Source: a virus
Strand: one strand, 5' to 3'
IMG/VR virus record: IMGVR_UViG_3300037722_000409
Coordinates: 28,322-92,321 of that record
Length of the DNA stretch: 64,000 nucleotides
Below are positions 1 to 59,682 of the stretch, one piece after another. The notes beneath the pieces are model-generated. The model worked only from the letters and a program-made list of their open reading frames with translations, was not told the DNA's origin and did no database searches. The translations under genes were made by a program, and so were the position numbers. Each line of letters opens with the position of its first letter. The stretch's first letter is position 1.

Positions 1-354
1 TACGTTGACGAGCAGACATTCGTCACCGACGAGCAGGTGCAGCGCATGGACGTCCTCTGGAACGACCTGACCAGCTTCTTCATGCGCGCCTTAGAAGTGA
101 TGAAGGACCTCAAAGGAGGCAACGCCGCCATTCCTGAGCTGGAGATACTCTTGCGCTCGAGCAGCGCGACGGTAGGCATCACCGTGGAGGATGGAGCGTT
201 AAACTCTCAGGTCCTCACGGACCTGATCGCGAGCGTCGCGGAGAAGACCGCTAAGATGCTGGACGGCGTGCACAGCAAGCACCGAAAAGAAGGACACGGC
301 TTTTACCGCACGATAGACGCCGCGGAAGAAGACTTGATGGAAGTTGACGTATAG
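1..354 (+). CDS. hypothetical protein, 5'-truncated (position suits a terminase small subunit)
   Basis: Frame is open from base 1 and its stop overlaps the TerL start. No recognisable motif. Confidence 0.5.
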   Translation, partial: YVDEQTFVTDEQVQRMDVLWNDLTSFFMRALEVMKDLKGGNAAIPELEILLRSSSATVGITVEDGALNSQVLTDLIASVAEKTAKMLDGVHSKHRKEGHGFYRTIDAAEEDLMEVDV

Positions 355-1871
355 TGGCGCGTGTTCTAAAGGGGACTAGTCTAACTGGTCCTCCAGCCCC
401 CTTTACCGCTGTAGAAAAAGCCCACCTCGCCCTTGGGCTAAATTTCTTTTGGTATTGGTTAGACAACATCTTCATTAGGTCGTTTGAAGGGCAAACGTTC
501 TACAGTCCGAAAAGCGGTGAGAGGGCAGGTTTTGAGTTTGGAGACGTGCATCGTGAGTGGGCGCTGCTCGCGCAGTTCTCACCCCGGCTGTGTCTCCAGT
601 CCGCGCGTGGTCACCTTAAGACGACCGTGCTCGGGCAAGCGTTTCCATTTTGGCTTATGGCCAAGGCAGGGGTTGATAAGAACGAGACGTACGTGGACGG
701 AGTGTACTTCAGCTACAATGACACCCTTGCCTCTGAGAAGACAGCTGACTTGAAGCGGTTCATACGGTCTAACCCGTACGCTCGTTTCTGGAAGGACTTA
801 AAGCCCTCCGCAGAGTCGGTCATAAACTACCTCATCGACTGGGGCGAGGGGCCAGTCGCTGAAGTCTTCCTAAGGCCCTCAGGTATTAAGGCCGCGACTC
901 GTGGACGGCACCCTAAGTTCGTGGTGGCGGACGACATCTTGAGCGACTTTAGCAACCCGCTCTCGAGCTCGGAGCTTCGCTTGATCAGTCGTATCTTCAG
1001 GAACGCGATCATGTCGATGCCCTCTAACCCGAACGACCCTATCGTGCTGATAGGCACACCTCAGGCCTACGAGGACATCCTGTACCAGCTAGCTGACGAC
1101 GAGGAGTGGATGTGGGTGACCTACCCGGCAGTCAAGAACTGGGACACCCAAGAGACGCAGTGGCCTGAAAAGTACGACTTCAACCGCTTGATGCGGATAC
1201 GCAAGTCTCACGGCGCTGCCTCGTTCGCCACAGAGCAGCAGCTCGTGCCGGTGACCATCTCTGACCAGTTCCTCACGCGAGAGGACCTAGCACCGATCGT
1301 CGACGCCACCTTGAAGATGTGGGACCTCACGAAGGAGTTTCCTAACCGGGCTGGCCTTGGAACCTACGGGGGCTTGGACATCGGTAAGGACGTGCACCCG
1401 TCACACGTGATAGTCTTCGTAGAGCTGCCTAATAAGACGTTGGTGCCGCTCTATCACTCGTTTCTGGACCACATGGAGTATCCAAAGCAGGTGCGCTTGC
1501 TGAACTTCTTAGCCAATCACTTTAAGCTCAAGGGATATTTCGACCGTACCAACAACGTGTTGGACGACCGAGGACTCAGTAGACGGTGGCACGGAAAGTC
1601 CTTCAATAAGCGGTTAAAGGCAAACATGGCGCTTATGTTCGAGAAGCGTGTGTTTGCAGACCTCGACGAAGGGGATCCGGGACTGGTACTTCCCGCCGAC
1701 GAGCGGTACTTGAACCAGGTCTCTATGGTACGCCGTGACCTCACCGCTACAGCGGGCCCAGACGGTCACGGGGACTCGTTCTGGTCGACAGCGCTCGCCA
1801 TAAAGGCAGCCAACGACGGGCCAAGCATCGTAAACGTTGGCAGTGCCAGCGCGCAGAGGAGTAATACCTGA
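354..1871 (+). CDS. terL: terminase large subunit
   Basis: Walker A-like ARGHLKTT, RGRHPKFVVADD Walker B, IGTP coupling motif, RNase H-fold GGLDIG ... HGDSFWSTALA. Lies upstream of the portal. Confidence 0.92.
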   Translation: MARVLKGTSLTGPPAPFTAVEKAHLALGLNFFWYWLDNIFIRSFEGQTFYSPKSGERAGFEFGDVHREWALLAQFSPRLCLQSARGHLKTTVLGQAFPFWLMAKAGVDKNETYVDGVYFSYNDTLASEKTADLKRFIRSNPYARFWKDLKPSAESVINYLIDWGEGPVAEVFLRPSGIKAATRGRHPKFVVADDILSDFSNPLSSSELRLISRIFRNAIMSMPSNPNDPIVLIGTPQAYEDILYQLADDEEWMWVTYPAVKNWDTQETQWPEKYDFNRLMRIRKSHGAASFATEQQLVPVTISDQFLTREDLAPIVDATLKMWDLTKEFPNRAGLGTYGGLDIGKDVHPSHVIVFVELPNKTLVPLYHSFLDHMEYPKQVRLLNFLANHFKLKGYFDRTNNVLDDRGLSRRWHGKSFNKRLKANMALMFEKRVFADLDEGDPGLVLPADERYLNQVSMVRRDLTATAGPDGHGDSFWSTALAIKAANDGPSIVNVGSASAQRSNT

Positions 1872-2092
1872 TGATAGCACACGGCATAGGGCTAGACAAC
1901 ACCAAAGTACGCACGGATCGCTATACTCGACGACACATCGAGAATCAGCTTCACGTCTGGGAGCACCGCTTAGAGCTCGTGACGCGGTATATGCCTGCAA
2001 AAGGCTTTACCACAGAGCAGGTCGACGCGGCTGTCGCCGAGTGTGAGAAGATGCTTGACTGGTACGATCGACTTTTGGAGCAATACGAATAG
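1871..2092 (+). CDS. hypothetical protein
   Basis: ORF coupled to the TerL stop (TGATG). Confidence 0.55.
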   Translation: MIAHGIGLDNTKVRTDRYTRRHIENQLHVWEHRLELVTRYMPAKGFTTEQVDAAVAECEKMLDWYDRLLEQYE

Positions 2093-2464
2093 ATGCCGCG
2101 CCCCGAGCAGTCCTTAGGCAAGGCGACTGCCTTTATAACCGCCAGTAGAGCTCGCACTCTTGGAGGTGGGGGCAGTAAAAAACGTTCCGCAGAGACGCCA
2201 AATTTTGCGACCTTGACCGAGGAGCAGTATAGCACGGTTCTTGAAGCGGCTGGCGCGAGCCCGCGCATGATAGAGCAAGAGCTGAAGATGCTGAGGGTAT
2301 ATAAGTCACGGGTTGACTCGGAGCACGTGCAAAAAGCCCGGGCACGCTTGAAGGCCAAGCGCACCACGACAGCGCAGGAAGACCTCGGAGAGTACTTCGA
2401 CGCCAGCGCACGCATGGAAGACCGTATCCGTAACCGAAAGGAGAAAGACGAGAATGGCACGTAG
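2093..2464 (+). CDS. hypothetical protein
   Basis: ORF abutting its neighbours in the operon. Confidence 0.55.
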   Translation: MPRPEQSLGKATAFITASRARTLGGGGSKKRSAETPNFATLTEEQYSTVLEAAGASPRMIEQELKMLRVYKSRVDSEHVQKARARLKAKRTTTAQEDLGEYFDASARMEDRIRNRKEKDENGT

Positions 2465-2807
2465 ACGCCGCAAGGCTGGAGTTCGCGCCTTATGGGCGCC
2501 GGTACCAGTCGACGTTAATGTAACCCAGGCACACCCTACACCAGGGTGGGTGATCATAAAGGAAAACTTCGTCAACCTAGAGCACGCCGTGGCCGGCACG
2601 AGCGTGGTCTTGGCCATCGCGCGTCCCTTTGACACCAACACCATGCACGGCGAGGTGGCAGCTATACACCCTATAACGGCTGAAGAGACAGGCCTCACAA
2701 CCGGCGACAAGATTATCTACAAAGAGTATTCCGGGGGTCGCTGGTCTTTTAACGGGGACAAGTACCTAATCACAGATGCCCGCGATATCCTAGCAAAGGT
2801 GCAGTAA
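2454..2807 (+). CDS. groES: GroES/Cpn10-like co-chaperonin
   Basis: HPTPGWVIIK...GEVAAI...GDKIIYKEYSG...NGDKYLITDARDILAKV follows the Cpn10 pattern. Confidence 0.85.
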   Translation: MARRRRKAGVRALWAPVPVDVNVTQAHPTPGWVIIKENFVNLEHAVAGTSVVLAIARPFDTNTMHGEVAAIHPITAEETGLTTGDKIIYKEYSGGRWSFNGDKYLITDARDILAKVQ

Positions 2808-2827
2808 CGCACCACAGAGCGTGACGT

Positions 2828-4537
2828 ATGGGACTATTAGATCGTATACTTGGCAGAAAGACCACACGTCCGGGCGTTCAGTCCGGGCCTGTTCCTAACC
2901 CCGCAGCTGCGCAGTTTCTCAAAAGCCTAGAGGTGCAGCTGGCGCAAGGAAACTTGTCCCCGCGCGAGACTGACGCCGCACGGCTTGTTAAAGCCATCGT
3001 GCATCGTCAGTCGGTCAATGCGCCCACAGTTGGGGTGCCTGATCTAGGGTTTAAAGGTGCGCGTCAGCAGCTGTTCCAACGGTTTAACCTGATCGACCTG
3101 TACGGCATGGCGCACAACAACTCCACGGTCAAGACCGCCGTGTTGACCTTACGACACGAGGTCTTCCGTCGTGGGTTGCAGTGGGACCCGGCGTTCGCGT
3201 ACCGCTGTCCAACGTGCCACGTTGACTTCTCCAAGGATGAACAGACCGAGCACGACAAGCGCTGCCCAGAGTGCAATTCTGTGCTGCAGTCACCCAACCC
3301 CCTGCAACGCGTGCAGTTCGAGCGGCTTATGCCTCACGTTAACCTGTACGGCCAGAGTCTACTGGGGCTGCTCAAGACCTTGGAGGACGACCTGAACATC
3401 GCCGACGACGCGTTCTTGCTCGCGTCCTCAGAGTACCAGCTCGCAAAAGACGAGTATGGGCAGTCGACCATCAAGCGGTTCGTGCGGCAACTCTTCCGCC
3501 TCGACCCCATATTCATGGAGTTTGACACTGACGACAACAACCGCCCCGGCCTAGCGCACCACATCTGCCTGGCCCACCGGGAGAGCCTGCTGGAGGTCCC
3601 CCGTGACGCTGGCTGGGAACACGACTGGAAGGGCGTGTGTCCCATTGACGGGTTTCCGACCCTCCCAGTGGTCTATCGTTATGTGCCGACACGCGGCACC
3701 TACGGCGCGCAGAAGGGTGGGGTGAACACCGCCAAAGATGCGTACTACTTCGTCAAGGGTGAGGTGATCCACGCCAGCAAGTACAGTCCGTCAGAGCTAT
3801 ACGGCTACGCGCCCCTGCTCGGCCTGTACGAGAAAGTATTGTCTCTCATAGGCATGGACCGCTACCTCTACGACTACTTCTTCGAGCGCAAGATGCCGCA
3901 GGGCGTCATCACCACGGTCACCGACAACCCGGAGCAGCTGGAGATCGACAAGGAGATCGTGCTGGCTAAGACCCTTGAGGACCCGCACTACCTTCCGTGG
4001 CTGGCGGTGAGCAGCAACTCTGGGCAAGGACGCACGGAGTTTGTACGGTTCGCCTACTCGTTGGACGAGCTCCAGTTCCTGCCAGTGCAGGAGGCTCTAG
4101 CTCGAGCAGTAGCTGGGCTATACGGCATCCCCGACCTATTCATGGGATTCGAGACCAACACGGGGGGCATCGGCAACCAGAGCCAGCAGGTCACACGTAT
4201 GGGTCGTGGCGCTGCCGCCTCACAGGCCGTGCACAACACCGATGTTCTCGCCCCGCTGCTTGAGGTCATGGGTGTGACTGACTGGGTGCTGACCTTATCC
4301 TCCGCTGAGGACTACACCGAGACCGAGGAGTGGGACATCAAGGACCGAAAGGCGCAGTGGGCGCAGACCATGCACTCCATAGGGTTCGGCATCAAGTATG
4401 ACCAAGAGTCGGACGAGTTCACCGTGACAGGTGAGGTTCCCTCGCAGCAAGAGCAGCAACAATCTCAGCAGCAGCAAGATCCATACTCTCAGTTCGGTGG
4501 TGGAGCCCCAGGAGGTGGCGCCCCTGGAGGCTTCTAA
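2828..4537 (+). CDS. portal protein with zinc-ribbon insertion
   Basis: Size and position after TerL. EDDLNIADDAFL, EVIHASKYSPSELYGYAP and AVAGLYGIP resemble HK97-type portal motifs. CPTC..CPEC insert. Confidence 0.85.
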   Translation: MGLLDRILGRKTTRPGVQSGPVPNPAAAQFLKSLEVQLAQGNLSPRETDAARLVKAIVHRQSVNAPTVGVPDLGFKGARQQLFQRFNLIDLYGMAHNNSTVKTAVLTLRHEVFRRGLQWDPAFAYRCPTCHVDFSKDEQTEHDKRCPECNSVLQSPNPLQRVQFERLMPHVNLYGQSLLGLLKTLEDDLNIADDAFLLASSEYQLAKDEYGQSTIKRFVRQLFRLDPIFMEFDTDDNNRPGLAHHICLAHRESLLEVPRDAGWEHDWKGVCPIDGFPTLPVVYRYVPTRGTYGAQKGGVNTAKDAYYFVKGEVIHASKYSPSELYGYAPLLGLYEKVLSLIGMDRYLYDYFFERKMPQGVITTVTDNPEQLEIDKEIVLAKTLEDPHYLPWLAVSSNSGQGRTEFVRFAYSLDELQFLPVQEALARAVAGLYGIPDLFMGFETNTGGIGNQSQQVTRMGRGAAASQAVHNTDVLAPLLEVMGVTDWVLTLSSAEDYTETEEWDIKDRKAQWAQTMHSIGFGIKYDQESDEFTVTGEVPSQQEQQQSQQQQDPYSQFGGGAPGGGAPGGF

Positions 4538-5360
4538 CGTAAACAAAGCTCCACGCTTTAGACGTGTGACCACCACAGGGGTGCGTCGACCAGGGTACAT
4601 ACGGGGAACCATAGAAGCGCAAAAGGAGTTCCTCCGTATTCTTGCAGACCTTCACAAGGCTGGCCTTGACAAGCTGGCGCGCAAGCTTAAGAGTATTCCG
4701 AAGTCATCGATGGCGCGAGCTTTAGCCGCTGTAGAACAGACAGGCACCGAGTGGATCGAGGAGCTCGTGGATAGCGCCATGCCCTCCATCAAAACCGTGT
4801 ATACGGACGGGCTTAAGGCTGGATTCACTGAGTCAGGTCTGGCGTTTGACCCCCTAGCTGCCGACCCCCACGTTCTGGAACTGTTGGCGCGCAGCCCTGA
4901 TGGTATAGTACCTGCCCTGAGGGACTTCACCGAGACTGAGACCAGGTTTGCCGAGAAGATAATCCGGGGCTCCTTTGAAGAGGGTACCTACTTTGACCTC
5001 GGCAAGGTCATCGACCAACTGAGGGACCGAATGCCCGCGGCGCAGTACAAGCTGGAGCGGATCGTGCGAACAGAGACGCGAAAGCTCGCCGGTATGGGTA
5101 AGCTGGCCGCGTGGGAGAAGGACCCCGAGAGGGACTGGTTTTCCTACCACTACGTCGCTACGTATGACGAGCGCACACGGCAACAACACATGCACTTTAT
5201 GACCGGCGGCCCCTATGAGTTTGACCAGGTAAAGGTCATCTGGGAGGAGGAGCGTGAGCCGTACAACTGTCGCTGCTCCTTAGCGCGTACACTCAAGCCA
5301 CACGACGTGCTGGTGACGGAGGGCCACGTCACAGCGGAGGAAGCGGAGCGGTTGTTCTAA
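4431..5360 (+). CDS. MuF / SPP1 gp7-like minor head morphogenesis protein (true start probably near 4539-4581)
   Basis: ERIVRTET, DERTR..H and PYNCRC motifs. Directly follows the portal. Confidence 0.85.
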   Translation: MRFPRSKSSNNLSSSKIHTLSSVVEPQEVAPLEASNVNKAPRFRRVTTTGVRRPGYIRGTIEAQKEFLRILADLHKAGLDKLARKLKSIPKSSMARALAAVEQTGTEWIEELVDSAMPSIKTVYTDGLKAGFTESGLAFDPLAADPHVLELLARSPDGIVPALRDFTETETRFAEKIIRGSFEEGTYFDLGKVIDQLRDRMPAAQYKLERIVRTETRKLAGMGKLAAWEKDPERDWFSYHYVATYDERTRQQHMHFMTGGPYEFDQVKVIWEEEREPYNCRCSLARTLKPHDVLVTEGHVTAEEAERLF

Positions 5361-5796: not shown

Positions 5797-7101
5797 ATGC
5801 GCACCCCGTCACAGCTTACACCTGAAGAGCTCGAGGCTCTAGTTCACAGTTGGAAACACGGTCCTGCCCCCGCAGTTGATATAGCCGTAGAATACGGGGT
5901 GAACTTATCATCGTTGCGGTCGTTCTTGCTCGCACGGGGAATACACCGCGAGTATGACGCGGGCCGCAAGGCAACAATAGGGGAGGACTGGACTGACGCG
6001 GACTACATAGTTCAGACCCAGCATGACCGGGAGCTTTCCCAATTGAAGGCTCAGGTTAACCACTACCGTCGGCTCTACACGGCGGCCACCAAGAAGGACA
6101 CCGCCCAAGACATGATCCTACAGGTTCTACGAGACAACATCGTAGCGTGGGACGTGCCCTCACCAGAACTCTTCAAGGTCTCACACAAGAAGTCTCACGG
6201 CAGTCACACCCTGGTTGCGTTGCTTTCTGACCTTCATGTCGGCGAGGTTGTCGACAAAGAGGCCATGATGGGCATGGGCGAGTATAACCTCGACGTGTTT
6301 CGGCAACGTGCCGGCGTCTACGTGGCGAACTTTCTCCGATTGTACGAGATCGACAGCTCCGGCCGAGAGATCCCGAAATTGACCATCTTCTGTGACGGGG
6401 ACTTCATCTCTGGCTTGATTCACGATGAGCTGCTCAAGACCAACGCCGTGAACGTCATGGACCAGATGACGCTGGCCGCCACAGTCGGCGCATGGATCAT
6501 CCGGCAAATCGCGCAATACTTCAAAGAGGTCCACGTGTCCTGCACGGTGGGCAACCACGGCCGCACCGGTCAAAAGGTAGAGTTCAAGGACCCGTCACTG
6601 AGCTGGGACTACATGGCCTACCAGATGATGGCTATGCTTCTCAAGAACGACGACCACATTACGTGGGACATCCCGAAGTCGCTTTGGGCAGTCACCAAGG
6701 TGGAAAACCTGCAGTTCCTGCACTACCACGGGCACGGCCGCATGCAGAACACCTTGTCCATCCCCTACTACGGCATCGACCGAGCCATCCGGGACATGCG
6801 GGAGATCTTCCAGGTTCACGACCTGAAGTTCGACGGAATGTGCATGGGACACCTGCACCACTTCTTCGAGAAGGACCTCGGCACCGGGCCTGTCATCTTG
6901 AACCCCTGCTGGAAGGGTGGAGACGAGTTCGCGACCCTTGGCCTGCGCAAGTACAGCAAGCCTGAGCAGGTCATCTTCCTGGTACACCACAAGAGGGGCT
7001 ACGTCAACTCCGAGAGGATCCACCTCTGGGGCCAGACACCCGAGAACGCCCTGCACGTCCCAGAGGGCCCAGCGCCTATCTGGAGCGACACAGAGGTCTA
7101 A
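5797..7101 (+). CDS. calcineurin-like metallophosphoesterase with N-terminal HTH-like segment
   Basis: SDLH, GDFISG, GNHGR, HGH and GHLHH motifs. AGGAGG precedes ATG 5797. Confidence 0.85.
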   Translation: MRTPSQLTPEELEALVHSWKHGPAPAVDIAVEYGVNLSSLRSFLLARGIHREYDAGRKATIGEDWTDADYIVQTQHDRELSQLKAQVNHYRRLYTAATKKDTAQDMILQVLRDNIVAWDVPSPELFKVSHKKSHGSHTLVALLSDLHVGEVVDKEAMMGMGEYNLDVFRQRAGVYVANFLRLYEIDSSGREIPKLTIFCDGDFISGLIHDELLKTNAVNVMDQMTLAATVGAWIIRQIAQYFKEVHVSCTVGNHGRTGQKVEFKDPSLSWDYMAYQMMAMLLKNDDHITWDIPKSLWAVTKVENLQFLHYHGHGRMQNTLSIPYYGIDRAIRDMREIFQVHDLKFDGMCMGHLHHFFEKDLGTGPVILNPCWKGGDEFATLGLRKYSKPEQVIFLVHHKRGYVNSERIHLWGQTPENALHVPEGPAPIWSDTEV

Positions 7102-44331: not shown

Positions 44332-46773
44332 ATGCGCGTTATCCACCGCGCTAATCCTCCACGCCCAGGCCTCGTTCCCCAGTCAGGCGACTGGGATAGA
44401 CCAGTACGATGGGTACGACCATCCGAGCAAGCGGTGTCGTCCACAACTGCCACTGACCTACACGTGACCGTTCAGCAGATACTTACACAGTATAAACCTG
44501 GTGACGTTTTGAGTCCCGAGGACGTAGAGCGTGCTCTCAAGTACTTCGTGCCAAATGAAAGCGGGCGCCTGTTTCACGTCGAAATGGCGCTGTTTCGAGA
44601 AGCCCTAGGGACAGTCCCAGCGGTTCAGCTACAAGGCCTTGGTCCCTTCGAAGTGGTTGATAAGATACCACCTAAATTTCCAAAAGACTGGGTGGCAGCG
44701 TACTCGTATTCACCAGACAACTCCGAGCGCCCCAACATCATGGCGCTGCGTGACCGTAAACTGACGGTCCACGCGGTGGTGCACGAGATAGGTCACCACG
44801 TTGAGCACTCCTATCTCAACGGAGCCGTTCGGCAAGGCCTTAAGAAGGCATTTCGTGAAGCAAAACGGTCCCGCACTGGTTTTCCGTCCGAGTACTCTAA
44901 GACCTCAGCAAGTGAGTTTTTCGCTGAGTGCTACGCGTGGAGCTTGCTAGATCCCGTGGAGTTGAACACGCGTAACCGTATGATGTTTCACATCTGCAAC
45001 TCCGTAAACGAAGGTGACCGTCGACTGATAAACAACTCGCTGGAAACGGAGGGGCGTGTGCTTATTCACGAAACTGAGGGTCTACTAGACGGCTTTGACC
45101 CTACGCTCCCTGACGCTGGTTCTGACACGCTCAATAAGGCGCAGCCCCCACGCCCCGGCCTGATGCCTCAATCTGGTGATTGGGATAAGCCGGTGAGATG
45201 GGTGCGACCTGAAGAAGCTGCTCCGTCTGCAAACTGGGTTAAAGACAACGCCGAACTGTTAGACCATGCAGACCGTGAGCTACCTGTCGAAGCCTACCAC
45301 GCGATATTAGCTTTTGTCGGCCACGAACCTGGCGCGCTCTCTACCCATGGGCCTGGAACAATTGGCATAATGGATGCTGTCGCCTTAGAGGAGGCGTACA
45401 CGGAGCCTCTGAGCTCGCCTCACGCGCGTGAGATACGGCGTGGCCTCGAGTCAGCTATGGCCCCAATTCGTGAGAAACTACGAGCGGAAGTCGGTGACTC
45501 AATAACACTTTACCGGCACCAGAGTCCACGCACAGAGAACGCTAAAGACCGCACGGTGTTGTCGTGGACCAGTGACAGAGAGTTCGCGGAGTACTTACAC
45601 GGTCCTGGCGAGCGTGACGTCTACTACCTGCAGAGCCGTGGGCCGTACAGTCAAGTCATCGAGACTGACCCAGCCTACGGGTCGGTTCCGTTTTCCAGCC
45701 AAGAGTCCGCGCAAGCGTGGGCTGACGCACACCCTGGTGTAGACATACACGGTGACTCGGTCGGCTCCGTGGACGTGGTGTCAGAAAAGCGAGGTGAAAA
45801 ACAGAAGGGCGTGGTGGTAACCGCTGATGTTCCTCTTGACGACATTGTGTGGATCACTGACCGTGCTGGCCAGTCAGAGTTCATAGTTCGGAACACTGGT
45901 GCTCACCGCATAGAAAAGGCCCAGCCTCCACGCCCAGGCTTAGTACCCCAGAGCGGCGACTGGGATCACCCGCGTCGGTGGATACGACCAGAGCAACTCA
46001 CTCACCCGCAGATACCTGAGCAGCCCGCGTACCGCAAGGCTAACCTCTCTTTAGTGGTGCCCTCTGAAGCCGCTAAGATAGACCGTGAGTTTCACAATAA
46101 AAACTGGCGGGCGCTCATCTCTGAGGCATTTGGCGTAGGAGTGCCGGGGTATGAGGTACACGTCTCTAGCGCATACGTCTCTAGTAAATACGGCAAGCGT
46201 GGTGCCGCCTTAGTTGTAAAGATGCGGGTGTTTTACGAGGGGGGAGAAGATGATATAGGGTCAATCCACCGCGTCATCTTCCCGGACCAAGTGTACCATG
46301 ACAGCTTCTTCCTAGACTCGAAGCACCAAAACAAGGGATTGGCGGCGGACATGCTTGAGCGCATGGAGGACACCTACATCAAGCACGGAATCAAGTTCAT
46401 CACGTTGATGGCCAACGACTCGGTCGGCGGATACGCTTGGGCTCGGCAAGGTTTTGACTTTCAAGACAGCCAAGACCGGGCGGGCGTGGACCGAGAGGCG
46501 GAAGAGTCTATCGTAAACTATGTGGCCAACAATAACCTAAGCTCTGCCCAAAAGGAGAGATTGCTAGACCAGTATCACAGCTTGGAGCACGCCTGGGACA
46601 TCGCCGCGTGGAATCCGACAAACGCACCAGCTGGCGAGCACCTTGGAAAGAGCATCCTCCTCGGCGCCACATACCACGCCAGCAAGGACCTTGACCCTGA
46701 CAGCGCAGGCTACAAGATCGGAAAGAGGTACCGCGCGGCTCGAAAAGCCCTACAAGGAGCTAATGAACAGTAA
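44332..46773 (+). CDS. polyvalent protein: tagged zincin peptidase, R-S-E ART-like domain and GNAT acetyltransferase
   Basis: HEIGH..SEYS..SEFFAE; ITLYRH..LSWT..QSE; LDSKHQNKGLA...VGGYAWARQGF. Confidence 0.8.
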   Translation: MRVIHRANPPRPGLVPQSGDWDRPVRWVRPSEQAVSSTTATDLHVTVQQILTQYKPGDVLSPEDVERALKYFVPNESGRLFHVEMALFREALGTVPAVQLQGLGPFEVVDKIPPKFPKDWVAAYSYSPDNSERPNIMALRDRKLTVHAVVHEIGHHVEHSYLNGAVRQGLKKAFREAKRSRTGFPSEYSKTSASEFFAECYAWSLLDPVELNTRNRMMFHICNSVNEGDRRLINNSLETEGRVLIHETEGLLDGFDPTLPDAGSDTLNKAQPPRPGLMPQSGDWDKPVRWVRPEEAAPSANWVKDNAELLDHADRELPVEAYHAILAFVGHEPGALSTHGPGTIGIMDAVALEEAYTEPLSSPHAREIRRGLESAMAPIREKLRAEVGDSITLYRHQSPRTENAKDRTVLSWTSDREFAEYLHGPGERDVYYLQSRGPYSQVIETDPAYGSVPFSSQESAQAWADAHPGVDIHGDSVGSVDVVSEKRGEKQKGVVVTADVPLDDIVWITDRAGQSEFIVRNTGAHRIEKAQPPRPGLVPQSGDWDHPRRWIRPEQLTHPQIPEQPAYRKANLSLVVPSEAAKIDREFHNKNWRALISEAFGVGVPGYEVHVSSAYVSSKYGKRGAALVVKMRVFYEGGEDDIGSIHRVIFPDQVYHDSFFLDSKHQNKGLAADMLERMEDTYIKHGIKFITLMANDSVGGYAWARQGFDFQDSQDRAGVDREAEESIVNYVANNNLSSAQKERLLDQYHSLEHAWDIAAWNPTNAPAGEHLGKSILLGATYHASKDLDPDSAGYKIGKRYRAARKALQGANEQ

Positions 46774-47275
46774 AGGTGAGAATGGTGCGTTTCTTTTCGC
46801 TGAGCTCTGGGAGCCAGGCTTTGAGAAGACGCTGCAGGGTGACTTTGAGCTCAACAAGGCTGGTGGATTGGTGCCTTACCGCGTGCGCGTGTATCCAAAG
46901 ACCGGTGGCGCGCCGTACATGACCACCCGGTGGCGCAAGCCTGGCGCCTTGTCGGCTGAGTCCCCGATCCACGTGGTCCCCGCGGCCGCCTACCAGGGCA
47001 GCCTCATAGACGTCTACCACGCGTGGCAGGGATTCCTCGGGACACAGGAGAAGCTCACCGACGCCCTCATGCAGCCGCTGGTCGCCATGCAGGAGATCCT
47101 GTTCAAGGGACGCCTAGGACTACTCGCTATCCAAGACAACCGAGTGCTCGGCGTGGCGGTTATCCAGCAGGGAAGCAACCTCTTGACCGCGAGCCCTATA
47201 GACCAGCTGCGCGGCAACACCAACGCCGTGATAGACACCCTCACTCAGGGCTTGAACGCCTACGAGGTTCAATAG
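46763..47275 (+). CDS. hypothetical protein with a divergent tag-like motif
   Basis: LNKAGGLVPYRVRVYPKTGGAPYMTTRWRKP. Confidence 0.6.
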   Translation: MNSKGENGAFLFAELWEPGFEKTLQGDFELNKAGGLVPYRVRVYPKTGGAPYMTTRWRKPGALSAESPIHVVPAAAYQGSLIDVYHAWQGFLGTQEKLTDALMQPLVAMQEILFKGRLGLLAIQDNRVLGVAVIQQGSNLLTASPIDQLRGNTNAVIDTLTQGLNAYEVQ

Positions 47276-47278
47276 GTC

Positions 47279-50200
47279 ATGCGCATCGTTCACAAAGCTG
47301 GTCCTCCAGGACCGCCTCCTCGGCCCGGCCTCGTATGGAAGCCGTCCACTCACAGGTGGATACGGCCAGACCATAACGACGAGATAGTAGACCCGTGGCA
47401 CTCAGACGTGCGAAATGAGCTGTCTGGAATGACCAATGATCAAATTGATAGTATACTTTCAGATCTTTCACAGTGGTACAAAGATAACAACATTTCTCCT
47501 GGTAAAGGATACGCCCTAGCAGAGGCTCCTCCAGGATGGAGCGATATAGTAGACCTCACTCATGTGACTCGGTCAGAAGCAAGCTACCGCGATCAGCTTG
47601 ACGTCTATAGAGCTGGTAACTTTAACTTAGACGCGTCGACCGAGTCTCTTCAAGATGACAAACGCCGTATTAAAGAATACTTATCCGACAGAGGGTTAGC
47701 TCAGTTTCACGGCCCATCTGACGTAGCGGTGTTAAAAACCGCAAATAAGGCTATTAACGAAGAGCTAAAATCTCGTAAACTTCCTACTGGCGCGGTGATC
47801 TCCGCCCACTACGCGGCTTTCTACGAGGACGAGGAGCTAGCTCCAATAGATCCTGCCGAGATGACCCGGGTGCTAGACAACATTGCTAAGACAGGGTTAA
47901 TACCACGCGCGAGTGACAATGAGACAACTCAAGTATATGATAAGGTTTTTAACCGCCCGCCCGCCGTGTATAGCGTTCCGCTAGGAGATTGGAAAGAAGC
48001 TTTTCTTTTTCCTCCGGAGAACCCTGTCTCTGAGGAGATTAGCAAGACGGTATTTATACTTCACGGCGTTGAAACACTAAGCAAGAGCCGTGTTGACGAC
48101 ATGGAGCAAGTTACCACCATCGGCGACCAGCTAGCTGAAAGAGGCGAGGTGGCTAAACTGTCAGACCATGTCTCCTCGTGGGGCCTTAAGACGTACACCA
48201 CTAAGGCCGCCGCAAATCCAGAGGCCTTTGGGTTAACCGCGCCTGAGGTCATGACAACGGCACCAATTCCGCCCAGTAACCTCGTACTGGGCCGGGACCT
48301 CGTAGCTCAAAGACCTGGCATAACCAACGGTGAACTTACGGAACTACTATTTAAGATAGCCAAAGAGCGTAGCGTCACAAATATACTAAAAGACAGTGCT
48401 GTCCCGGAGGTTTCGGTATACACCCCGGGATGGACCGCGCGTGCGTACGCCCGACTCAGAGAGGAGCGTGAGGACTCTGCTGTGCCCACTGCTATAAAGA
48501 AGGCCCAGCCCCCTCGCCCAGGGCTCGTCCCTCAGTCAGGGGACTGGGACAACCCGGGACGGTGGATACGTAAACCCGAGATGCAGCAAGGTGAAGCTCC
48601 GCAACCTGGGGCTCCTAAAGACGAGCCGCCCCCGGTAAATCTGTCACCTGGGGCTCAGGCGGTTGTCGACAAGTTCGGGACTCACGCGGACCTCACCTCC
48701 TCGCTGAAGGACCTAGAGGCCGTGCAGCAGAAGCTCGAGGCCTTAAATCAGCAGAAGGTGCCTGCGCCGGTCAAAGGTGGAATCAAGGAGCTGCTGGGTC
48801 ACGTGGAGCGCCTCAAGACCCAGATAGCTGAAGGAAAAGGCAAGGGTGACAACCAGCCACCTGGTGAGCCGCCTAAGCCAGGCCTAGAGTGGGACGCTAA
48901 GAGCTACAGGTGGACGCGCCCAGAGACTGGCAGGGAGTGGACCGCCAGCGGGGTGCCGATCCCGCCGAGCTGGACCAAGGTCAAGACCTACCGAAGCCCG
49001 CGCAGCCATATAATAGCCTCGGGTACCGATCAGCACGGCAAGGGTAAGTACCTGTACAGCTCCGACTTCCAAGAGGGTCAGAAGGCCAAGAAGTTTGACA
49101 GACTCAAGAAGATAGACAAGGTGATGCCGCGCATCCAGCGTGCCGCCGCCACCAAGGGACAGTCGGACGACTCCGCTGCAGCCTTGTACCTCATATCCAA
49201 GACTGGCTTCAGGGTCGGCGGCGAGGGTGGCATGACGGCCGGCAAACCCACCTATGGGGCGTCCACCCTACGCGCGGGACACGTCAAGATAAAGGGTGAC
49301 ACCGTGTCGTTTGACTTCGTAGGCAAGAAGGGTGTCAATGTCAAGCAAGTGGTGAAGGACCCCACTCTGGTCCGGCTACTCGCGCCGCGGCTAACTGGAA
49401 AGGCCAAGGACCAACCGATATTTGCCACCAACGAGAAGCAAGTACTGGGAACTCTACGTGACATGGGGAGTAAAAACTTCAAGGTTCACGACCTGAGGAC
49501 GTGGAACGGCACCAAGCTGGCCCAGAACTTGGTGAACGAGATGCCCGCCCCGACCACTCCAGCTGAGGACAAACGAGCGCGGTTAACGGTGGCGGCCAAG
49601 GTAGCGGAGTTCCTGGGGAACACGCCAAAAGTAAGTCTAGACAGCTACATAGCCCCAGAGGTATTCGCCCCATGGGACGCTGTAACAGCGGAGCAAGGTA
49701 TGACTAATAAAGCCAAGCAGGCATTCGACGTTCTGAAGGACGTCTACTACTCCCATGAGATTACCAACAAGAGCGCGTTCGAGCCAGAAGACTCTCCAAT
49801 CTCCAAGGCAGTCACCTTGGCCAACGCCGGGTTGGAGCTTTGGGGGACGCTGATCTTGAAGGCTGAGATAGACGCGGAAGCAGGCACGGCTGACGGACAG
49901 ATAGACATGACGGACCTGCCAGGCGTTCCACCGCAAAAGCTAGACGTCGGGGACAAGAAAGCGCACGACATGCTGAGCCAGGTGAATAGCATCCTGCAGA
50001 ACATCGTGAACGATCCGGCGACCGCTAGACAGTTGGACCCTGAGGAGCGGGCGCGAGTCACCGCGGTTGGAAACTGGCTGACCCAGACCCCTCAGCGGCC
50101 TGAGCGACCGCAAGCCTCGCTGCCTCGGCGTGACGGCTTTGAGCAGCAGGTCAAGATGCTGGCTAAGGCAATGGACACCAACATCTCCGTGAAGGCGGTC

Positions 50201-57601: not shown

Positions 57602-57769
57602 ATGCCATTCGCCGGCTACAGGGACTTTGACGACTGTGTGAGCAAGAACAGAGATAAGTCGGACCCATCCGCGTATTGCGGGTCCATCAAGGCCAAGACC
57701 GAGAAGCTGCTCAAGGAGCGGCAGGTGCTCAAGGGCCTGGAAGCCATGATGGAGGGCTTCCGCAAATGA
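57602..57769 (+). CDS. 55-aa protein MPFAGYRDFDDCVSKN...AYCGSIK (not in ORF track)
   Basis: GAGG RBS, open frame with typical codon use, C-x13-C motif. Confidence 0.7.
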   Translation: MPFAGYRDFDDCVSKNRDKSDPSAYCGSIKAKTEKLLKERQVLKGLEAMMEGFRK

Positions 57770-57816
57770 GGCGACGAACCAGAGTCACCCTCGTTGAGGG
57801 AAGAGGTTAATAGATA

Positions 57817-58446
57817 ATGTCACTGCCAGGAATTGGATTCAATGATAGCTCGGACTTTCCGCGCTCCGTGAAAGAGTCCGCAACCACGCTTCCCTTCATG
57901 AAGGGCGGGAGCAAGACCCTAACAACCACCGCGGTTGACGAGAACATCGTGCTGGTCAGCGCCCTGCGCCGGTTCGAGAACACACTCATCGTGGCTACAG
58001 GTACCCACACGGGCGCCAACAACGCGGCTGTGCTGACCGACAGCGCTGGGGACTTCATCAACAAGGGCGTGCAGGTAGGCGACACGGTAAACAACACCAC
58101 CGACGTGTCGAGCGCCGTAATCACGGCGGTCACCGCCACCACCATCACCGGCGTGCTGTCCGGCGGTACCGACGACGACTGGGACTCGACCGACGCCTAC
58201 ACCGTAGACAAGACGGTGACCCACCAGAACGCCAGGGCGACCGAGATCCGGAAGGTGGCCTTCATCACCGACCTCGCCTGTTATATACGCTTCGACGGGG
58301 ACGCGTCCGCTACCAACTTCACCGTGGAGCTGGCCGCCGGGGAGGCGTACAGTGACGAGAACATACGCATCGCGTCCCGGATAAGCTTCATCCAGAAGAC
58401 CGGGGTCGAGACCCCCACGGTCCGGTTCGCGGTGTACGGGGTATAG
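57817..58446 (+). CDS. virion structural protein
   Basis: T-rich beta protein in the structural cluster. Confidence 0.55.
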   Translation: MSLPGIGFNDSSDFPRSVKESATTLPFMKGGSKTLTTTAVDENIVLVSALRRFENTLIVATGTHTGANNAAVLTDSAGDFINKGVQVGDTVNNTTDVSSAVITAVTATTITGVLSGGTDDDWDSTDAYTVDKTVTHQNARATEIRKVAFITDLACYIRFDGDASATNFTVELAAGEAYSDENIRIASRISFIQKTGVETPTVRFAVYGV

Positions 58447-59682
58447 ATGCCGTTTGTCCCAGGGAGCCACTACATCCTGGTAGACGGGTTGCCGGTCAGC
58501 ACCGACAACCCACTACCGTTCGAGTTCGGGGACTCGGCCGCCATCGACCCGGTCGCGCGCCTACGGGTGTCTACTGGATACACGTTGTTCGACTACAAGC
58601 ACACCCACGATAAGGCGCCGCTGTTCTTCGACGAGGTTATCGTTAACGGGTCCGGGAACGCCGCGTCGACACACGTTCCAGCAAACGCGGACATCTTGAT
58701 GCACGTCGAGGCCGGGGACAGTATCATCCGGCAAACGTTCCGACGGTTCAACCACCAGCCTGGAAAGGGGCAAAACGGGCTGTTCACCTCCGTCCTGGGA
58801 GCAGCGGCCAGCGGGGTAACGGCTCGGTGCGGTATCTTCGACGACAACAACGGCTGCTTCTTTCAAGTGACGAGCGCCGGAATTGCGGTGGGAAAGCGCA
58901 AGAGCGCCGTGGACACGATAGTCGCACAAGCTGACTGGAACCTGGACAAGCTCGACGGCACCGGCGTGTCAGGTGTCACGATCGACACGACAAAGGGCCA
59001 GGTGTTCAGCATAGACTTCCAGTGGCTAGGGCTTGGTCGGGTGAGGTTCGGTATCTTCTCTGACGGGATCGTCGCATACTGCCACGAGTTTAACCACAGC
59101 AACGTTTCTACGTCGGTGTTCATGACCACCCCCAACTTGCCGATACGATATTCCATCGTATCCACCGACGCCACCGCCGAGATGACCCACATCTGCAGCA
59201 CGGTCGTGTCTGAGGGCGGGCTGGACCCGAACGGAGTGCTTCGGTACTTCTCCACCAACGGGACTCACGTGGATGCAAACGTAGTGAACACGGTGTACGC
59301 GGTGGTTGGACTCCGGCTAAAGTCCGCTCAGCTCGACGTAGTTTGCCTGATAGAGCAGCTGACCATGCTGTCACAGACCAAGGAGGACTTTGAGTGGATA
59401 TTGCTCTTTGACCCTGTGGTGGCAGGCACGTTTACCTACGGTGATGAGACCAACTCCGCGCTTCAAACGGCGAGGGGCGCCACGGCGAACACGGTCACCG
59501 GCGGGACGGCCGTTCAGGGAGGATTTGTCGAGAACTCCCAGCACCTGGCCACGTCCTTGCGAGACCCTCTATACCTTGGGTCTAAGATAGACGGGACCCA
59601 ACAGACCCTGGTGCTGTGCGTGCGGCCGTTCGCGGCTAACGCAGACATACAAGGTGGGCTAATTGTCAGGGAGCTGCTGTGA
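58447..59682 (+). CDS. virion structural protein (concanavalin-like beta fold suspected)
   Basis: RLRVS..YTLFD..QPGK..DFQWLGLGRVRFG..TPNLPIRY. Confidence 0.6.
   Translation: MPFVPGSHYILVDGLPVSTDNPLPFEFGDSAAIDPVARLRVSTGYTLFDYKHTHDKAPLFFDEVIVNGSGNAASTHVPANADILMHVEAGDSIIRQTFRRFNHQPGKGQNGLFTSVLGAAASGVTARCGIFDDNNGCFFQVTSAGIAVGKRKSAVDTIVAQADWNLDKLDGTGVSGVTIDTTKGQVFSIDFQWLGLGRVRFGIFSDGIVAYCHEFNHSNVSTSVFMTTPNLPIRYSIVSTDATAEMTHICSTVVSEGGLDPNGVLRYFSTNGTHVDANVVNTVYAVVGLRLKSAQLDVVCLIEQLTMLSQTKEDFEWILLFDPVVAGTFTYGDETNSALQTARGATANTVTGGTAVQGGFVENSQHLATSLRDPLYLGSKIDGTQQTLVLCVRPFAANADIQGGLIVRELL

Follow-up and report, generated by a model that had tools for sequence, protein, structure and literature searches.

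Why would a virus join its prohead protease, in a single polypeptide, to a type IB topoisomerase (TopoIB) and to other enzymes? The question is raised by an open reading frame (ORF) at positions 47279-52852 (plus strand) of the DNA analyzed here, hereafter the window, which comprises the last 64 kb of the 92,321-bp IMG/VR record IMGVR_UViG_3300037722_000409, a record rated complete by CheckV. The order of the encoded modules is tag, module A, tag, short helical module B, tag, TopoIB, acidic linker, Nudix domain, spacer, methyltransferase (MTase) fold, prohead protease, and tail (Table 1). The explanation that we favor, to which we assign a probability of about 0.68, is that this is a "polyvalent" head polyprotein of a phage, which would be packaged and processed in the head, its enzymes being delivered with the DNA. 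The features by which polyvalent proteins are recognized are all present, i.e., several unrelated effector domains, a location among head genes, and an assemblin-like peptidase at the C terminus.

The ORF is a single ATG-initiated frame of 1,857 codons that runs for 5.6 kb with no internal stop, as an earlier note made from this DNA had described it, and we consider it virtually certain to be a real gene. The start at ATG 47279 lies 4 bases past the stop of the preceding gene and has a GAGG 11 nucleotides upstream. It is likely the true one, since the leader that it adds, together with the first tag (MRIVHK↓A plus tag 1, the arrow marking a predicted cut), is common to a metagenomic relative (P0003) and to the 813-amino-acid protein encoded nearby. 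The gene call of the source record begins instead at M51, giving a product of 1,807 amino acids from which the leader and tag 1 are omitted (window positions 47279-47428 are affected). An assembly artefact is a danger that the earlier note had itself pointed out; misassembly, or sequencing errors that removed stop codons, would in that case have merged what are really individual genes for TopoIB, Nudix, MTase, and protease. This reading could appeal to the shorter product of the source gene caller and to the more distant relatives, in which the modules are separate genes, but it is hardly credible given an uninterrupted frame of this length and the recurrence of the fusion elsewhere. The same fused core, which the note had proposed looking for in related phages, is kept by two proteins from independent metagenome assemblies, P0002 (1,213 amino acids, locus L040, 55-60% identity) and P0003 (2,071 amino acids, locus L041, 46-52% identity). 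Both have TopoIB, Nudix, MTase, protease, and C-terminal tail in one frame and in the same order, with conserved linkers. Likewise, in a set of 1.8 billion representatives, the proteins closest to the protease are fusions of the Nudix-protease and Nudix-MTase-protease types.

The loci of P0002 and P0003 came from a scan of metagenomes. In viral contigs, an alignment-based scan gave related loci and a single-protein query gave none. In L041, the fused gene is followed by a scaffold gene (45% identity) and then by the capsid protein gene (78%), in the order of the window. No close relative was detected among 50,697 cultured phage records, which contained only separate TopoIB or protease matches below 32% identity and no match to the capsid protein. 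The search of 185,579 species genomes revealed no prophage relative, the matches being unrelated Nudix genes only. Two side observations concern P0003, which has extra zincin-like modules before TopoIB (Peptidase_M90/MtfA and anthrax-lethal-factor-like, from precomputed Pfam annotation) and an additional tag after the protease domain.

The TopoIB module appears to be intact. Pfam Topoisom_I covers residues 595-786 (E value of 3e-23, 82.7 bits versus a cut-off of 23.7), and the best alignment is to the TopIB of Deinococcus radiodurans (PDB 2f4q, 82 bits). The catalytic pentad of the latter (R137, K174, R239, N280, and Y289) pairs one-to-one with R645 (49211), K683 (49325), R740 (49496), N781 (49619), and Y790 (49646-49648). 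These are the residues that had been picked out, at the right coordinates, in the earlier note (R in GFRVG, K in GKKG, R in DLRTW, N in LGNT, and Y at 49646), and in an alignment of 32 phage TopoIBs they form the only invariant catalytic columns. The AlphaFold2 model of residues 531-963 has a predicted local distance difference test (pLDDT) score of >90 through the enzyme core, and the top Foldseek matches, which cover both domains, were the variola and Deinococcus TopIB structures (2h7f, 3m4a, and 2f4q; E value of ~1e-11). In our opinion, the enzyme is very probably active. The Nudix domain is equally well preserved. It matches Pfam NUDIX at residues 969-1070 (E value of 1e-15, 58 bits versus a cut-off of 21.1), and its box, which is invariant in the relatives, fits the consensus GX5EX7REUXEEXGU at every position (G997-x5-E1003-x7-R1011-E-V-x-E1015-E1016-x-G-L; residues 997-1019; 50267-50335), so that calling it perfect, as the note did, was justified. 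Thus, TopoIB and Nudix both keep all their catalytic residues. The family matches of the latter are generic MutT-like ones, which do not point to a substrate class.

A different picture is given by the MTase fold. Pfam N6_N4_Mtase is matched only in the last quarter of the profile (residues 1485-1536, 25.7 bits, under the cut-off of 26.7), while Foldseek recovers M1.HpyAVI, CcrM, an N4C MTase, and M.RsrI with E values of 1e-9 to 1e-6. Motif IV reads CVTAPEG where P0002 and P0003 have CVTSPPYW, and it is followed by a deletion of ~17 amino acids, so the catalytic (S/D/N)PP(Y/F/W) is lost. The S-adenosylmethionine-binding motif I reads DPFVNSG, departing from FxGxG, where the relatives have DPFVGTG. 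The cautious label "methyltransferase-like" of the earlier note was therefore apt, with the fold present and both motifs degraded. We regard the domain in this phage as what looks like a dead relic of a beta-class N6A/N4C DNA methyltransferase, whereas in the close relatives, with these motifs retained, it is probably active.

The prohead protease was located where the earlier note had placed it, by Pfam Peptidase_S78 (residues 1645-1733, 21.3 bits versus a cut-off of 21; 25.6 bits in the genome search) and by the PHROG head maturation protease family (residues 1574-1736, E value of 5e-13). TIGR01543 gave 31.7 versus a cut-off of 59. Among 100 homologues, G1584, D1592 (52052), H1624 (52148), and S1685 (52331) are invariant, and E1713 (52415) is a further residue of the domain to be mentioned here. 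The AlphaFold2 model has a pLDDT of >90 and matches herpesvirus assemblins in Foldseek (E value of 1e-5). This is the only S78 match in the genome, in which no ClpP, S49, or S77 protease was detected either. We are thus confident that the C-terminal domain is the maturation protease of the phage. In the protease genes of two relatives, L013 (13981-15738) and P0041, an intein was found directly after the invariant His (..MVFH↓C...HN↓SDVQTG, arrows here marking the intein borders), with an HNH domain in the case of P0041. Inteins are frequently located at catalytic sites, and their position directly after this His fits a catalytic role for H1624.

The modules are connected through two recurrent elements. 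The first is a tag of the form PGL..W..RW.RP (GL..RW for short), present in three copies in the polyprotein (residues 7-31, 409-434, and 527-549). The whole genome has 17 such tags on seven proteins that add up to ~6,900 amino acids, and the same tag is found on giant ORFs of up to 3,458 amino acids in 13 other IMG/VR viral contigs (the largest, L028:1759-12132, carries four of them). A tag immediately precedes TopoIB in several unrelated proteins, while the Nudix and MTase-like modules have no tag of their own. In the AlphaFold2 model, the tag in front of TopoIB is a weak beta-hairpin (pLDDT of ~62). The second element is a Lys motif, [VIL]-x-K↓[A/L/S/T], which precedes each of the tags in the genome. 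The polyprotein has 22 copies versus 7.7 expected (z of 5.5; none of 1,000 shuffles reached 22) and the scaffold has 5 versus 1.0 expected, while terminase, tail, and other proteins are not enriched. All three relatives conserve the copies at K861, K963, K1084, K1361, and K1554, and two of them that at K1732; together these positions bracket the Nudix, MTase-like, and protease domains. The modeled stretches around K963, K1361, K1554, and K1732 are of low confidence, K861 is in a modeled helix, and K1084 is outside the models. At residue 18 of the major capsid protein, the sequence reads INK↓SLG (53827-53880), and that of L041 has LNK↓GIG at the same position (5892-5950), from which a capsid propeptide of only 18 residues is predicted. 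The capsid protein of HK97, gp5, is cut at K103↓S104, also after Lys and before SLG.

One candidate cut-site position coincides with a gene border in a relative, given that the protein of L040 starts exactly at the TopoIB tag. For this reason, the first 526 residues of our polyprotein look like two extra modules that would have been inserted between tags. The first of them, module A (residues 32-408), had no match in Pfam, NCBIfam, or Atlas, while the stretch formed by tag 2 and module B shares 38% identity with the N-terminal region of P0003. In more distant relatives, the same components are distributed differently. L012 and L013 have separate genes in the same order, i.e., a large polyvalent protein, a TopoIB of ~600 amino acids, a Nudix-2H phosphoesterase, and the protease, while in L018 and L024, TopoIB belongs to a polyvalent ORF, with the protease encoded apart as a protein of 719 amino acids. 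The modules are therefore units that fuse and split, since relatives hold them either fused or as separate genes. In an unrelated MuF-TopoIB phage (L035:3969-9294), the modules of the polyproteins are connected by another repeated linker, GGPGSG..GHEGRPGE.GG, which suggests that cargo proteins of this kind generally contain repeated joints.

A fusion that is real and recurrent, an intact TopoIB, the only head protease of the genome, and a position in the head operon, directly 5' of the scaffold-like and major capsid genes, make encapsidation the most economical explanation. The earlier note had gone further and held that fusion to the protease guarantees encapsidation. Encapsidation still stands as the best reading, but the guarantee does not, because TopoIB is separated from the protease in L012, L013, L018, and L024 and yet retains the GL..RW tag. 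Hence, TopoIB does not need the protease fusion; to judge from these loci, the tag, or fusion to other head proteins, would evidently be sufficient for its loading. For packaging, the tags may be as important as fusion to the protease, which may count most for those modules that have no tag (Nudix and MTase-like). Packaging is strengthened by other longer proteins that have a related TopoIB, since some of them fuse it to portal and MuF proteins, which are parts of the virion. The partners found were Phage_portal, Phage_portal_3 plus InPase, Portal_Mu, Phage_Mu_F, ART-PolyVal, SNF2, DNA methyltransferase, and ATP-dependent DNA ligase. The portal- or MuF-fused TopoIBs (P0008, P0009, P0017, and P0026) have 36-45% identity to ours and belong to the same bacterial-type clade. 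A viral-contig scan with P0017 as the query gave portal matches only.

It could also be that the polyprotein is a cytoplasmic precursor that cuts itself before or outside assembly, with TopoIB, Nudix, and the other modules acting in the cell at a late stage of infection, for example, on replicating or concatemeric DNA during packaging, and only the protease entering the procapsid. The cultured jumbo phages PaBG, Motura, and BCSR5, whose stand-alone TopoIB genes are annotated as ordinary DNA metabolism, would agree with this scenario, as would the lack of tags on the Nudix and MTase-like modules. However, prohead proteases such as HK97 gp4 and T4 gp21 are normally active only inside the assembled shell, the gene is in the late head operon, the tag on TopoIB is the same as on six other cargo-like proteins, and its relatives are attached to the portal and MuF proteins already mentioned. 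We consider a purely cytoplasmic role improbable.

If the polyprotein is indeed packaged, it would enter the assembling procapsid by means of the protease and the conserved C-terminal tail (a candidate docking element by analogy with HK97 gp4), by means of the GL..RW tags that it shares with six other large proteins, or by both. Inside the procapsid, the protease would act on the intermodular linkers, cutting them after the Lys of [VIL]-x-K↓[A/S/T/L] sites, and the same activity would trim 18 residues off the capsid protein and fragment the scaffold. Once released, the enzymes would remain in the head and exit with the DNA, and TopoIB, which requires no ATP, might then act on DNA topology at the very start of the infection, either on the incoming genome or on the host chromosome. 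Loading and processing within the procapsid are, in our opinion, probable, and we see about even chances that the enzymes are delivered into the host and have an early role there on DNA.

Several points weigh against this explanation. The phage is uncultured, and the presence of the polyprotein in its virion is a prediction. The S78 score is barely at the Pfam cut-off and that of TIGR01543 is well below it. The targeting role of the tag is putative. The cut sites are predictions from motif statistics and conservation, and about one-third of the motif matches lie inside folded domains (e.g., K1412, K1435, and K1494), so the motif alone over-predicts cutting; these three copies are probably left uncut. 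A 205-kDa protein in many copies would fill a large share of the capsid volume, and its copy number must consequently be low. Finally, any role of TopoIB after delivery is pure conjecture. Torsion relief, host shut-off, and end processing are all possible. There are hints in two directions, with the ligase fusions pointing to the DNA of the phage itself and the ART and SNF2 company to conflict. Incidentally, the ligase fusions (P0013 and P0014, both from metagenomes) have a tagged TopoIB, and the pairing suggests sealing and relaxing of the incoming phage DNA.

The second of these directions can be taken as an alternative in its own right, in which TopoIB is a packaged weapon that relaxes, nicks, or recombines host DNA, for host shut-off or in conflict with resident elements, like the polymorphic toxins borne by MuF proteins, and in which the acidic segment after it is a built-in inhibitor that spares the phage DNA until release. 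Among the neighboring tagged polyproteins, one matches ART-PolyVal weakly (24.6 bits, under the cut-off of 31.2) and another has an SNF2-type helicase, both typical conflict effectors, and TopoIB relatives share polypeptides with both families. Besides, several other TopoIBs are followed by short acidic peptides of shared appearance, some in frame and others at the start of the next gene (L035, L012, and L013). In our polyprotein, residues 816-824 resemble these peptides by eye, but the post-TopoIB segment is only mildly acidic (isoelectric point of 5.6), and a hidden Markov model built from seven of the peptides (a small model) had no match to the polyprotein, P0002, or P0003. This test thus gave no support for residues 808-843 being homologous to the acidic partner peptides. 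What is invariant in this region is a disordered motif after K861, GTADGxIDMTDLPGxPPQ, within the acidic linker (residues 862-963). In addition, the proteins in which TopoIB is joined to an ATP-dependent DNA ligase or to a DNA methyltransferase point just as much to work on the phage's own DNA. We think that a weapon is unlikely.

Returning to the polyvalent head polyprotein, this class has already been described, with assemblin-like peptidases that are always C-terminal and that probably process the polypeptide during assembly (Iyer, Burroughs, Anand, de Souza, and Aravind, 2017, PMC5512222). Our protein is similar in its many effector domains per polypeptide among head genes, its C-terminal assemblin-like peptidase, and its ART-PolyVal-like (by the weak match above) and SNF2 neighbors, but it adds TopoIB, the repeated GL..RW tag, and the Lys cut-site motif at module borders. 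TopoIB is not among the domains discussed in the main text of that paper, in which the sole mention of "topoisomerase" is a Toprim reference. Our search of the literature gave no report of a phage TopoIB borne in the virion, which is weak evidence since its coverage was incomplete. Therefore, while the class is published, TopoIB as its cargo seems to be unpublished, and the protease polyprotein is a new carrier for it. The portal- and MuF-fused TopoIBs are like ours in the invariant pentad with Asn in place of His and in being attached to a head-destined protein. However, they are the last domain of their proteins, whereas here TopoIB sits in the interior of a polyprotein with the protease at its end, and it is followed in frame by a peptide for which no homology to their partner peptides could be demonstrated.

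Compared with HK97 gp4 and the herpesvirus assemblins, the protease has the same fold, the invariant His and Ser, and the same location upstream of scaffold and capsid genes, with a predicted cut after Lys and a K↓SLG site in the capsid protein; it differs in its divergent sequence and in the ~1,550 residues of cargo at its N-terminal side. The internal proteins and Alt of T4, the Dar proteins of P1, and the ejection proteins of SPN3US are also loaded in the procapsid, where the head protease trims them, and are then injected along with the DNA (PMC3012670, PMC9024508, and PMC7411985). Here, unlike in those systems, the cargo is strung on the protease itself. T4 strips the N-terminal targeting peptide, whereas here the predicted cut precedes each tag, which would stay on the mature cargo.

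The virions of poxviruses carry a topoisomerase, and the likeness that we propose is with their virion enzymes (vaccinia/variola TopIB, Nudix decapping enzymes, and methyltransferases), which also include a small TopIB in the particle; variola TopIB was the best structural match of our model. The lineages are nevertheless unrelated, our enzyme is of the bacterial type (Asn, not His), and the resemblance of the enzyme sets is analogy only. Extending it, one might imagine a capsid starter kit similar to that of the poxvirus core, in which the head protease bears an active TopoIB, a Nudix enzyme, and further effectors, these being addressed by reusable hairpin tags and released by the protease, with TopoIB acting in the first moments of infection and with tags and cut sites doubling as joints at which modules are swapped, fused, or split. 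As a whole, this picture is tentative, and we put it at somewhat less than an even chance.

Should TopoIB be packaged and active, DNA topology would join the things that phages manipulate at entry, and a small, ATP-independent, self-delivering enzyme would become available for study. The locus makes clear predictions for capsid loading (a tag, a cut-site motif, and defined module borders), and such a loading system could be borrowed to equip phage heads with foreign proteins. How polyproteins of this kind evolve is illustrated by the relatives, in which split, fused, and decayed versions are found.

Table 1. Modules of the polyprotein and neighboring features in the window (all on the plus strand)
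Feature	Position	Strand	Residues	Remarks
Upstream genes, same apparent operon	44332-47275	+		813-aa (amino acid) cargo protein with three tags and GNAT-like end, then 170-aa protein
170-aa protein	46763-47275	+		carries the long-hairpin form of the tag
Tag 1	47297-47371	+	7-31	short form, PGLVW..HRWIRP; preceded by leader MRIVHK and candidate cut site K6↓A7
Module A	47372-48502	+	32-408	absent from P0002/L040
Tag 2 and helical module B	48503-48856	+	409-434 and 435-526	tag of long form, PGLVPQSGDW..RWIR; follows candidate cut site K408↓A409
Tag 3	48857-48925	+	527-549	PGLEW..YRWTRP; immediately before TopoIB
TopoIB	48926-49699	+		N-terminal and catalytic domains; Pfam, PDB 2f4q alignment, AlphaFold2/Foldseek
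Post-TopoIB segment	49700-50167	+	808-963	808-843 (FDVLKDVYY..EPEDSP), helix 844-861, K861↓A, acidic linker 862-963
Nudix hydrolase	50168-50530	+	964-1084	invariant motifs K963↓A and K1084↓S on either side
Spacer	50531-51361	+	1085-1361	ends conserved; His/Cys-rich insertion inside
Decayed beta-class MTase fold	51362-51940	+	1362-1554	TAPEG at 51455-51469; DPFVNSG at 51791-51811
Prohead protease domain	51941-52474	+	1555-1732	between K1554↓A and K1732↓S
C-terminal tail	52475-52849	+	1733-1857	disordered stretch, conserved helix, end motif GGLD[IL]VLFDxKTGEVL[LI]P
Terminator-like hairpin with T-run, then promoter-like site	52913-52978	+		TTTACC-17-TGnTATTAT; consensus scans only
Scaffold-like gene	53029-53784	+		acidic protein, rich in the Lys motif
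Major capsid gene	53827-55260	+		INK↓S at residue 18

Within the polyprotein, the spacer between the Nudix and MTase-like domains contains a His/Cys-rich insertion of ~165 amino acids (residues ~1148-1312; 50720-51214) that is exclusive to this phage, being absent from P0002 and P0003, and for which Pfam, NCBIfam, and Atlas gave no family match. Regarding the surroundings of the gene, homologues of both upstream genes are found in the same order in L040. The terminator-like hairpin and the promoter-like site lie between the operon of cargo and protease and the scaffold and capsid genes, and L040, whose protein is a relative at 60% identity, has a similar hairpin and T-run at the equivalent place after the gene (~6290-6350). 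A low ratio of cargo to shell may be set at this point. Lastly, the head module of this phage is in two parts, with ~40 kb between terminase, portal, and a MuF-like gene (354-5357) on one side and the genes for protease, scaffold, and capsid protein (52999-59682) on the other.

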